64,000 bases of DNA, taken from assembly GCF_003334355.1 (NCBI RefSeq), contig NZ_QOWP01000007.1. One strand, 5' to 3'. The notes beneath the pieces were generated by a model that was given only the letters and a program-made list of their open reading frames with translations, was not told the origin of the DNA and made no database searches. Source of the stretch: Escherichia coli. Lineage in GTDB: Bacteria > Pseudomonadota > Gammaproteobacteria > Enterobacterales > Enterobacteriaceae. The translations under genes were made by a program, and so were the position numbers. Below are positions 4,072 to 4,675 of this stretch, piece after piece; the stretch's first letter is position 1, and every line of letters starts with the position of its first letter.

Positions 4072-4129
4072 TTTCTGGTGACGTTTGGCGGTATCAGTTT
4101 TACTCCGTGACTGCTCTGCCGCCCTTTTT
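4072..4129 (+). ncRNA. dicF: DicF small RNA (Hfq-dependent; represses ftsZ among other targets)
   Basis: TTTCTGGTGACGTTTGGCGGTATCAGTTTTACTCCGTGACTGCTCTGCCGCCC followed by TTTTT; terminal GC stem plus U-tract; lies between ydfC and dicB as in Qin. Confidence 0.8.
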
Positions 4130-4298
4130 AAAGTGAATTTTGTGATGTGGTGAATGCGGCTGAGCGCACGCGGAACAGTTAAAACCAAAAACAGTGTTAT
4201 GGGTGGATTCTCTGTATCCGGCGTTAATTGTTAACTGGTTAACGTCACCTGGAGGCACCAGGCACTGCATCACAAAATTCATTGTTGAGGACGCGATA

Positions 4299-4487
4299 AT
4301 GAAAACGTTATTACCAAACGTTAATACGTCTGAAGGTTGTTTTGAAATTGGTGTCACTATCAGTAACCCAGTATTTACTGAAGATGCCATTAACAAGAGA
4401 AAACAAGAACGGGAGCTATTAAATAAAATATGCATTGTTTCAATGCTGGCTCGTTTACGTCTGATGCCAAAAGGATGTGCACAATGA
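4299..4487 (+). CDS. dicB: Cell-division inhibitor DicB (MinC-dependent)
   Basis: 62 aa MKTLLPNVNTSEGCFEIGVTISNPVFTEDAINKRKQERELLNKICIVSMLARLRLMPKGCAQ. Confidence 0.9.
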   Translation: MKTLLPNVNTSEGCFEIGVTISNPVFTEDAINKRKQERELLNKICIVSMLARLRLMPKGCAQ

Positions 4488-4675
4488 ATTCAGCATTTGT
4501 GCTTGTTCTGACAGTTTTTCTTGTTTCCGGAGAGCCAGTTGATATTGCAGTCAGTGTGCACAGGACAATGCAGGAGTGTATGACTGCAGCAACCGAACAG
4601 AAAATTCCCGGTAACTGTTACCCGGTCGATAAAGTTATTCACCAGGATAATATCGAAATCCCGGCAGGTCTTTAA
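4484..4675 (+). CDS. ydfD: Qin prophage protein YdfD
   Basis: 63 aa MNSAFVLVLTVFLVSGEPVDIAVSVHRTMQECM...; ATGA overlap with dicB stop. Confidence 0.8.
   Translation: MNSAFVLVLTVFLVSGEPVDIAVSVHRTMQECMTAATEQKIPGNCYPVDKVIHQDNIEIPAGL

Follow-up and report, generated by a model that had tools for sequence, protein, structure and literature searches.

Between positions 4072 and 4675 of the window, the whole 64-kb stretch of Escherichia coli DNA analysed here, lies what is very probably the distal portion of a dicBF operon belonging to a Qin-type lambdoid prophage, situated next to rspB, repressed by a DicA-family protein and capable of blocking cell division on derepression. The cassette itself is correctly identified and constitutes ordinary, already known K-12 biology: it matches the K-12 operon described in PMC10448788, much as an earlier note on this DNA, which saw in it known biology and not a new system, had supposed. 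The residual novelty lies in a divergent allele of the immunity module and, more so, in an unannotated structured RNA between dicF and dicB.

The cassette and its prophage

The operon downstream of its promoter, together with the remainder of the early-left arm, is made up as follows.

3198-3353, + strand: ydfA, among the first genes of the dicBF operon (PHROG 751)
3355-3483, + strand: ydfB, likewise (PHROG 2061)
3513-3731, + strand: ydfC, likewise (PHROG 1744)
3860-3948, + strand: long hairpin with a predicted RNase III site (inverted repeat 3870-3882 / 3928-3940)
4072-4129, + strand: DicF sRNA with intrinsic terminator hairpin and U tract (RF00039; identity to b1574; the fold shows the terminator)
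4299-4487, + strand: dicB coding sequence, 62-aa cell-division inhibitor, with Shine-Dalgarno sequence GAGGA at 4287-4291 (NF049927; PHROG 1251)
4484-4675, + strand: ydfD, 63-aa lysis protein (PHROG 1092, 6.8e-36, full length)
4769-8879, + strand: remainder of the early-left arm, with an 823-aa exonuclease, an excisionase (7313-7564) and a 431-aa tyrosine integrase (7584-8879)

The earlier note had placed a complete dicF-dicB-ydfD cassette here and had described both DicF and DicB as intact, and both statements hold. The bounds of the cassette are exactly the 5' end of DicF and the stop codon of ydfD. DicF is the sole Rfam family above threshold across the 64-kb window; its match at 4073-4124 (+) covers the full-length model (RF00039, positions 1-52) with 76.7 bits against a gathering score of 48 (E 3.6e-15). 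The 53-nt DicF of K-12 (b1574) maps to 4072-4124, with 53 of 53 bases identical, and a U tract follows at 4125-4129. DicB matches NCBIfam NF049927 over residues 1-62 of 62 (132.8 bits, cutoff 100) and the nucleotide sequence of dicB is 100% identical to that of K-12 b1575. Indeed, in a DNA alignment of window positions 2300-4780 with the Qin prophage of K-12 MG1655, DicF, the spacer that follows it and dicB are 100% identical. ydfD differs from K-12 b1576 by a single synonymous change (GTG for GTT), leaving the protein identical; no NCBIfam model matched YdfD, and in RefSeq the identical protein goes by the name ‘lysis protein YdfD’. An ATGA overlap joins the dicB stop codon to the ydfD start codon, which suggests that the two genes are translationally coupled. 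From the promoter region at ~3092 through to 4675, no IS element, frameshift or interrupting stop codon was found. The presence, integrity and identity of the parts are thus observed, as are the operator motifs and the RNA structures. Inhibition of cell division by DicB has been established for the identical K-12 protein, according to work that PMC10448788 cites, and YdfD is a lysis protein with IspG as its target (PMC8835842).

Upstream of dicF, ydfA, ydfB and ydfC share ~98-99% nucleotide identity with K-12; their names follow the RefSeq annotation of 99.9%-identical genomes. The gene order is that of K-12, with dicC and dicA diverging from one another, then operators and promoter, ydfA-ydfB-ydfC, dicF, dicB and ydfD. 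The hairpin at 3860-3948 (fold energy -37.6 kcal/mol, z = -3.5) is one base different from its K-12 counterpart, at window position 3880, and the whole ydfC-dicF spacer three. In K-12, DicF is processed by RNase III as well as by RNase E, and an RNase III cut between +813 and +814 gives rise to a 190-nt DicF species (PMC10448788). The corresponding predicted 190-nt precursor, ending at 4124, would start at 3935 in the 3' arm of the hairpin, in agreement with the K-12 RNase III mapping. Beyond DicF, dicB can be reached solely via read-through past the DicF terminator, and as this terminator sits between the promoter and dicB, the level of DicB would hinge on read-through.

On its far side, the operon leads into the exonuclease gene, whose 823-aa product is the full-length counterpart of the K-12 ydfE pseudogene. 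Family searches of this arm gave a partial match to NF007259 and matches to integrase families, and the arm is annotated in RefSeq in near-identical genomes. The prophage end adjoins rspB, followed by rspA and ynfA, as in K-12; this flank, together with the match to K-12, identifies a Qin-type prophage at the Qin site. Thus, the K-12 dicBF locus (dicC-dicA-ydfABC-dicF-dicB-ydfD-ydfE) and that of the window are alike in order, in the rspB site and in the dicF-spacer-dicB sequence. They differ in that the immunity module at ~2436-3143 is another allele, and in that the exonuclease, xis and int genes, which are IS2-cut pseudogenes in K-12, are intact in the window.

Ren-like, O-like and CII-like/YdaT genes, a further difference from the K-12 locus, were identified to the left by family searches. 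The window opens, at bases 1-75, with the end of an IS3-family element that sits within a methyltransferase pseudogene, which shows that the prophage is being eroded. In the nearest complete genomes (99.9% identical over 12 kb), the prophage is a ~23-kb remnant carrying lysis genes, relBE, hokD and rem, and head and tail genes are absent from that remnant. The rem product of the nearest relative is 92% identical to K-12 Rem; rem itself lies outside the present window. The prophage is probably cryptic in the present strain too.

Immunity module and probable control of the operon

Control of the operon would reside in a module of two divergent regulators, four operators and a promoter.

2313-2540, - strand: DicC-like (Cro-type) regulator (NF007282, DicC, 165.1 bits, cutoff 130)
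2555-2572: dicC-dicA intergenic operator with the TTAG-N6-CTAA motif, TGTTAGACTTTTCTAACA
2604-2621: dicC-dicA intergenic operator with the same motif, AATTAGAATTACCTAACT
2622-3029, + strand: DicA-family repressor, 135 aa, divergent allele (NF007257, 224.7 bits, cutoff 101)
3066-3083: putative dicBp operator, a perfect 18-bp palindrome, TGTTAGATCAATCTAACA
3092-3097 and 3115-3120, + strand: putative dicBp hexamers, -35 TTGCCT and -10 TAAATT, separated by a 17-nt spacer
3102-3119: putative dicBp operator, TGTTAGGTTATTCTAAAT

The dicC-like and dicA-like genes lie on opposite strands, 81 nt apart. The DicC-like protein shares 86% amino acid identity with K-12 DicC; the DicA-family repressor is 57% identical to K-12 DicA over 132 aa, in an end-to-end alignment with the 135-aa K-12 protein. 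Among the family matches of the repressor, which were limited to HTH-type regulators, no LexA/S24-type match was found, and K-12 DicA is itself described as having no RecA-cleavable bond (PMC10448788). The divergence is confined to a mosaic segment, ~2436-3143, that takes in the N-terminal half of dicC, the whole of dicA and both intergenic control regions. Alignment gives ~60% nucleotide identity to K-12 within this segment and 98-100% from ~3143 onward, so that the boundaries of the mosaic fall within dicC and just 3' of the promoter.

The TTAG-N6-CTAA motif occurs four times in the 64 kb, against 0.59 expected, and all four occurrences lie within the two intergenic regions of the immunity module. 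K-12 carries TGTTAG/CTAACA half-sites at the same four relative positions, and the dicBp operator palindromes have 0 and 2 mismatches here compared with 2 and 2 in K-12. Two operators were recognised in each region, whereas three per region are described in the literature. The proximal operator overlaps the candidate promoter at 3092-3120, which aligns with K-12 dicBp. The hexamers scored below threshold in a consensus promoter scan and, because they are too weak for such a scan, the assignment of dicBp draws on homology and on the published K-12 mapping. Worked back from the K-12 processing coordinates (PMC10448788), transcription would start at ~3122-3127.

In K-12, DicA represses dicBp 22-fold, and the Qin antirepressor Rem derepresses it 165-fold, leading to filamentation that requires either DicF or DicB (PMC10448788). 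Spontaneous switching on occurs in ~1% of K-12 cells, in a manner that depends on DicC and is independent of RecA, and the promoter is also induced by urea and heat (PMC10448788). The claim that the cassette is a latent division block, freed on derepression, agrees with these K-12 experiments on DicA, DicF and DicB, the trigger being an antirepressor or a bistable switch and not SOS cleavage. The arrangement has its analogue in the PL operon of lambda with kil (PMC10448788), where a divergent repressor/Cro pair and operators over the early-left promoter likewise precede an inhibitor that is followed by exo, xis and int. The two differ, however, in that the DicA-type repressor is short (135 aa), has no RecA-cleavable domain and is relieved by an antirepressor, and in that the inhibitor here comes after an sRNA and a structured RNA; no N/nut system was identified in the present case.

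Prophage repressor control, which the earlier note had asserted outright, is supported, with a qualification. Homology and the conserved operator half-sites favour it, but the repressor is a mosaic allele just 57% identical to K-12 DicA, and it is accordingly from the conserved half-sites that we infer its control of the promoter. As the repressor, the Cro-like gene and the four operators lie within one exchanged segment, they would have been inherited as a matched set. Moreover, 566 of 5426 E. coli genomes, that of a BL21-derived strain among them, carry the module nearly unchanged (99-100% conserved). Judged by its sequence, the exchanged module is most simply viewed as a functional alternative immunity allele.

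It could be argued that the mosaic DicA-like protein does not control the promoter, through a mismatch with the operators or an inactive gene, so that the cassette would either leak constitutively or be kept silent in another way (H-NS, Fis, Hfq, Rho), given that recombination has shaped the immunity module, with one boundary inside dicC and the other just past the promoter. This is hardly credible, as that same exchange brought in the repressor, the Cro-like gene and all four operators together, the repressor reading frame is unbroken and matches the DicA family with 224.7 bits, the dicBp operators are better palindromes than those of K-12, hundreds of genomes have the module conserved at 99-100%, and constitutive expression of dicB would be lethal. 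It is also very unlikely that dicB and ydfD stand apart from the DicA-controlled transcript, under a separate promoter within 4125-4298. Such an arrangement would make sense of the strong intrinsic terminator that precedes the spacer, and an older study, as cited in PMC10448788, proposed a promoter 5' of dicB. In K-12, however, where the spacer is identical, no second promoter was found, the transcript spans ydfABC-dicF-dicB-ydfD, and derepression of dicBp leads to DicB-dependent filamentation (PMC10448788). A consensus scan of 4125-4298 found no promoter-like site on the + strand, and the spacer takes the form of a conserved folded RNA, not of promoter-like DNA.

A reading that falls only a little short of being probable holds that the cassette is chiefly a domesticated module of benefit to the host, kept by selection rather than by prophage biology. 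DicF, at low or stationary-phase levels, would tune manX, pykA and xylR, while DicB-MinC would stop DNA entry by ManYZ-dependent phages. Both activities have a basis in K-12, where DicF accumulates in stationary phase and DicB mediates phage exclusion (PMC10448788, 10.1101/708461). Furthermore, 3779 of 5426 complete E. coli genomes (~70%) contain the 604-bp cassette with a coverage of at least 80%, in a median of two places per genome, mostly in degraded prophages. This reading is compatible with the main explanation, as it involves the same parts under the same control. Nevertheless, the cassette is also carried in the early-left operon of sequenced, functional temperate phages (Tritos, PhiR42_1, mEp460_ev081 and HannyBb), which makes a phage-side role like that of lambda kil at least as plausible.

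A structured RNA between dicF and dicB

The 174-nt spacer between dicF and dicB contains an RNA domain with the following elements; a further helix, P3, is variable.

4133-4281, + strand: pseudoknotted RNA domain, leader-type and STnc100/PasD-like
4133-4152 with 4263-4281: helix P1
4156-4171: helix P2
4176-4182 (CAGUUAA) with 4231-4237 (UUAACUG): pseudoknot
4220-4228 with 4238-4246: helix P4
4248-4252 with 4258-4262: helix P5

This RNA had been overlooked in the earlier note. Region 4060-4310 folds with -85.7 kcal/mol (z = -4.2) into a long closing helix around several hairpins. In a joint MAFFT alignment of 27 diverse members drawn from two classes of the RNA, leader and canonical, P1, P2 and P5 are paired in 99-100%, and 8 of 19 pairs show compensatory changes. 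The four-helix structure is paired in 90.5% of the alignment cells, compared with 32-44% when the partners are slid, and its covariation score is 0.401 against 0.168 for shuffled alignments, none of 500 shuffles reaching 0.401. At P4 the two RNA classes are aligned one column out of register, and the 71% pairing of this helix is thus an underestimate. The pseudoknot joins the segment directly 3' of P2 to the P4 loop and covaries in five versions: CAGUUAA/UUAACUG, which is that of the window, AUCAGC/GCUGAU, CUGGUG/CACCAG, CCAGCC/GGCUGG and CCAGUC/GACUGG. Cognate partners pair over at least 6 bp in 68% of distinct sequences, as against 8.5% of non-cognate combinations. Covariation of helices and pseudoknot together shows the spacer to be a genuine pseudoknotted RNA domain.

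Three other interpretations of the spacer were considered and rejected. The first likened it to c4-icd-ant of P1 immI; the homologue in P7 and D6, however, is flanked by tRNA genes and tciA, within the ban operon, and does not sit at c4. The C4 Rfam family matched neither the spacer nor its phage homologues. The second was a tRNA-like gene, of which ARAGORN found none within 3700-4700; tRNA-like processing would be purely speculative. The third took the spacer to be an in-frame N-terminal extension of dicB starting from a GTG at 4194. Against this, the length of the variable region shifts by non-multiples of three, in kil-type copies kil is preceded by a stop codon, and substitutions preserve base pairs and are not synonymous.

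At a relaxed Rfam threshold, positions 4122-4331 match RF02076 (STnc100) over its full length with 34.4 bits (E 1e-5), short of the gathering score of 47; leader-type homologues in phages score 33-44 bits and are all likewise below threshold. With sensitive blast searches of phage genomes, homologues were found that are not accompanied by dicB. These lie ~20 nt 5' of kil/kilR in Rac-like and Stx phages, 5' of tciA in the P1-like phages P7 and D6, and in a Klebsiella phage. In many phages, lambdoid and P1-like, the element is placed 16-20 nt upstream of dicB, kil/kilR or tciA, usually right after a DicF- or KilS-type sRNA. When viral contigs were scanned for the invariant core TCACCnGGAGGCACCnGGCAC, at least 120 stretches came up, and these fall into two classes. 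The leader class has 46 instances, including that of the window, at a fixed offset to genes for DicB-family proteins (more than 30), Kil (7), TciA and others; some of these DicB-family proteins are only ~50-60% identical to DicB, and the element is better conserved than the proteins encoded downstream of it. The canonical STnc100/PasD class has 80 instances, and here an intrinsic terminator, made up of a GC hairpin and U tract, comes after the element.

The two classes have in common the core GGUGAAU...UCACCnGGAGGCACCnGGCACC, helices P1, P2, P4 and P5, and the J2/3-L4 pseudoknot. They differ in that canonical copies have their own terminator, whereas the copy in the window has none and runs into the dicB ribosome-binding site. 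Published canonical copies are located in late regions, for instance 3' of stx2 (PMC12370729). STnc100/PasD are Hfq-associated prophage sRNAs whose function is not known (10.64898/2026.05.13.724894; PMC12370729), and in the literature on them no description of the leader-type copies was found.

A close parallel to the dicF-dicB arrangement is found in the KilS-kilR locus of Rac and the kil loci of Rac-like and Stx phages, which have the same three-part layout, with the fold ~20 nt before an FtsZ-directed inhibitor. In both cases the sRNA ends in a DicF-type terminator hairpin, and the inhibitor is followed by a small overlapping open reading frame (and then recE in the Rac/kil loci). In K-12 Rac, KilS, an sRNA annotated from the kilR 5' UTR (PMC8175672), occupies the position of DicF; its terminator hairpin is the same but its 5' region differs, and after it come the same spacer and then kilR. 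The loci differ in that the 5' single-stranded ‘seed’ of KilS-type sRNAs is unlike that of DicF, their DicF Rfam scores being 34-41 bits and below threshold, and in that the inhibitor is Kil/KilR (73 aa) instead of DicB. The K-12 Rac copy of the spacer element carries a G-to-A change in P5. Searches of K-12 Rac with the exact core pattern, and searches with a combined long spacer pattern, gave no matches, on account of single-base differences. An sRNA, a structured RNA and a small division inhibitor form a recurrent architecture.

Whether this amounts to a three-part RNA-plus-protein module conserved across phage families, with the spacer as a pseudoknotted, leader-type branch of STnc100/PasD, is a proposal that we make tentatively. 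With the same reserve, the spacer RNA at 4133-4281 may be an undescribed cis-acting element that controls the toxic genes or their processing, whether it offers a processing site, gates translation or acts as a stabiliser, or else the source of a second stable RNA. In 46 instances the leader-type element keeps a fixed distance to dicB-family, kil or tciA genes, which favours such control and suggests, from sequence comparison, a role in processing or translation. The element is conserved beyond the downstream proteins, covariation and the pseudoknot back its fold, and in Qin- and kil-type copies an extended P1 of ~20 bp would be long enough for RNase III. On the other hand, simple sequestration of the Shine-Dalgarno sequence is not evident, since GAGGA lies outside the fold. 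Related stand-alone copies behave as Hfq-associated sRNAs (10.64898/2026.05.13.724894), and the link to division inhibitors could reflect the common ancestry of early-left operons.

Working of the operon and its meaning

Taken as the DicA-repressed distal operon of a Qin-type prophage, the locus would be expected to work in the following way; what is said of repression and processing, and of DicF and DicB targets, is inferred from the K-12 experiments. The DicA-family repressor (2622-3029), acting on TGTTAG-N6-CTAACA operators over a PL-like promoter (~3092-3120), would keep the operon near-silent. Once repression is lifted, in K-12 by Rem, by stochastic DicA/DicC switching, or by urea or heat, a single transcript would run through ydfABC. 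RNase III, cutting at the hairpin at 3860-3948, and RNase E would then release DicF, a 53-nt RNA that has its 3' end at its own terminator and is expected to pair with ftsZ mRNA and further mRNAs; in K-12, DicF is antisense to the ftsZ, manX, pykA and xylR mRNAs and represses their translation (PMC5069750, PMC10448788). Read-through would cross the structured leader of ~150 nt into dicB and the translationally coupled ydfD. DicB would bring MinC to the septum, whilst YdfD, as a lysis protein, would inhibit IspG. The predicted outcome is filamentation and growth arrest, or, at low expression, the exclusion of ManYZ-dependent phages.

The strain thus keeps a Qin-type remnant with an intact division-inhibition and lysis module, probably with effects on phage exclusion and metabolism. 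The existence of DicA alleles that are 57% identical and have operator half-sites in common offers a ready test of immunity specificity and of the specificity of the Rem antirepressor. The spacer RNA, for its part, ties DicF-dicB, KilS-kilR and P1 tciA into one conserved architecture. STnc100/PasD RNAs, which have been filed as Hfq-dependent sRNAs, fold into an elaborate pseudoknotted structure, a hint of some function past simple seed pairing, and the copy that precedes dicB may provide a handle on how phages meter their toxic division inhibitors.

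A structured RNA between dicF and dicB

The spacer between dicF and dicB encodes a conserved, pseudoknotted, multi-helix RNA, which is unannotated both in K-12 and in those RefSeq genomes that were inspected. This RNA is related to STnc100/PasD, with an Rfam match that falls below threshold. In many phages it is joined 16-20 nt 5' of dicB, kil/kilR or tciA.

Window 4133-4281: structured dicF-dicB spacer RNA, sub-threshold Rfam match to STnc100/PasD

Four viral contigs (L016, L021, L042 and L116) carry near-identical spacer RNAs followed by DicB-family proteins, whose C-terminal halves are strongly unlike that of K-12 DicB (~50-60% identity, judged by eye). 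In these contigs the RNA leader is more highly conserved than the protein encoded downstream of it.

Some cryptic copies of the RNA have had their structure broken by single-base changes. In strain EA7 (L003, ~18100-18200), ACAGAUAAAA replaces ACAGUUAAAA, the 5' strand of the pseudoknot, while in K-12 Rac (L132, 2270-2290) helix P5 reads CCAGA rather than CCAGG. These changes may reflect the decay of degraded prophages.

A 247 bp stretch of the 254 kb Aeromonas phage AP1 (MT713136.1, 249906-250152) is 98.8% identical to window 4062-4308; it covers DicF and the spacer, ends at the start of dicB and is unannotated in the record. Contamination, a chimeric assembly and recent transfer are all possible explanations for this copy.

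DicF paralogues at kil-type loci

A DicF paralogue is found at kil-type loci, and in K-12 Rac this is KilS.

L007 (kil-type locus) 1172-1255: DicF paralogue
L010 (kil-type locus) 1134-1217: DicF paralogue
L132 (K-12 Rac) 2406-2503: DicF paralogue, kilS

The KilS-type sRNA shares with DicF the terminator hairpin GGCGG...CCGCC and the U tract, but differs from it in the 5' single-stranded region; the Rfam DicF model scores these paralogues at 34-41 bits, under its threshold.

Immunity module and integrity of the prophage

The immunity module is a mosaic replacement with sharp edges, ~60% identical to that of K-12 Qin (57% for DicA at the amino acid level). Despite this divergence it retains the operator half-sites TGTTAG/CTAACA. 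Of 5426 E. coli genomes, 566 carry this allele, C41(DE3) among them.

Window ~2436-3143: mosaic immunity module; N-terminal half of dicC, dicA and both operator/promoter regions
Window 402-2329, minus strand: rightward early genes, intact
Window 1808-2329, minus strand: CII-like/YdaT, intact
Window 862-1881, minus strand: O-like replication initiator, intact
Window 399-821, minus strand: Ren-like exclusion protein, intact
Window 4769-8879: exonuclease (823 aa), excisionase and integrase (431 aa), all intact
Window 1-75: end of an IS3-family element, inserted in the prophage's frameshifted SAM-dependent methyltransferase pseudogene

Window 1-75 does not align with the closest genomes; the element that ends there is present in thousands of copies in E. 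coli.

Whereas ydfE and intQ of K-12 Qin are IS2-interrupted pseudogenes, their counterparts here are intact; an IS66-family element interrupts the integrase gene of one closely related strain, E275a. K-12 Qin also lacks the CII-like/YdaT, O-like and Ren-like genes, all three of which are present here. Since Qin is without these rightward early genes, the prophage in the window is the less eroded of the two on the replication side.
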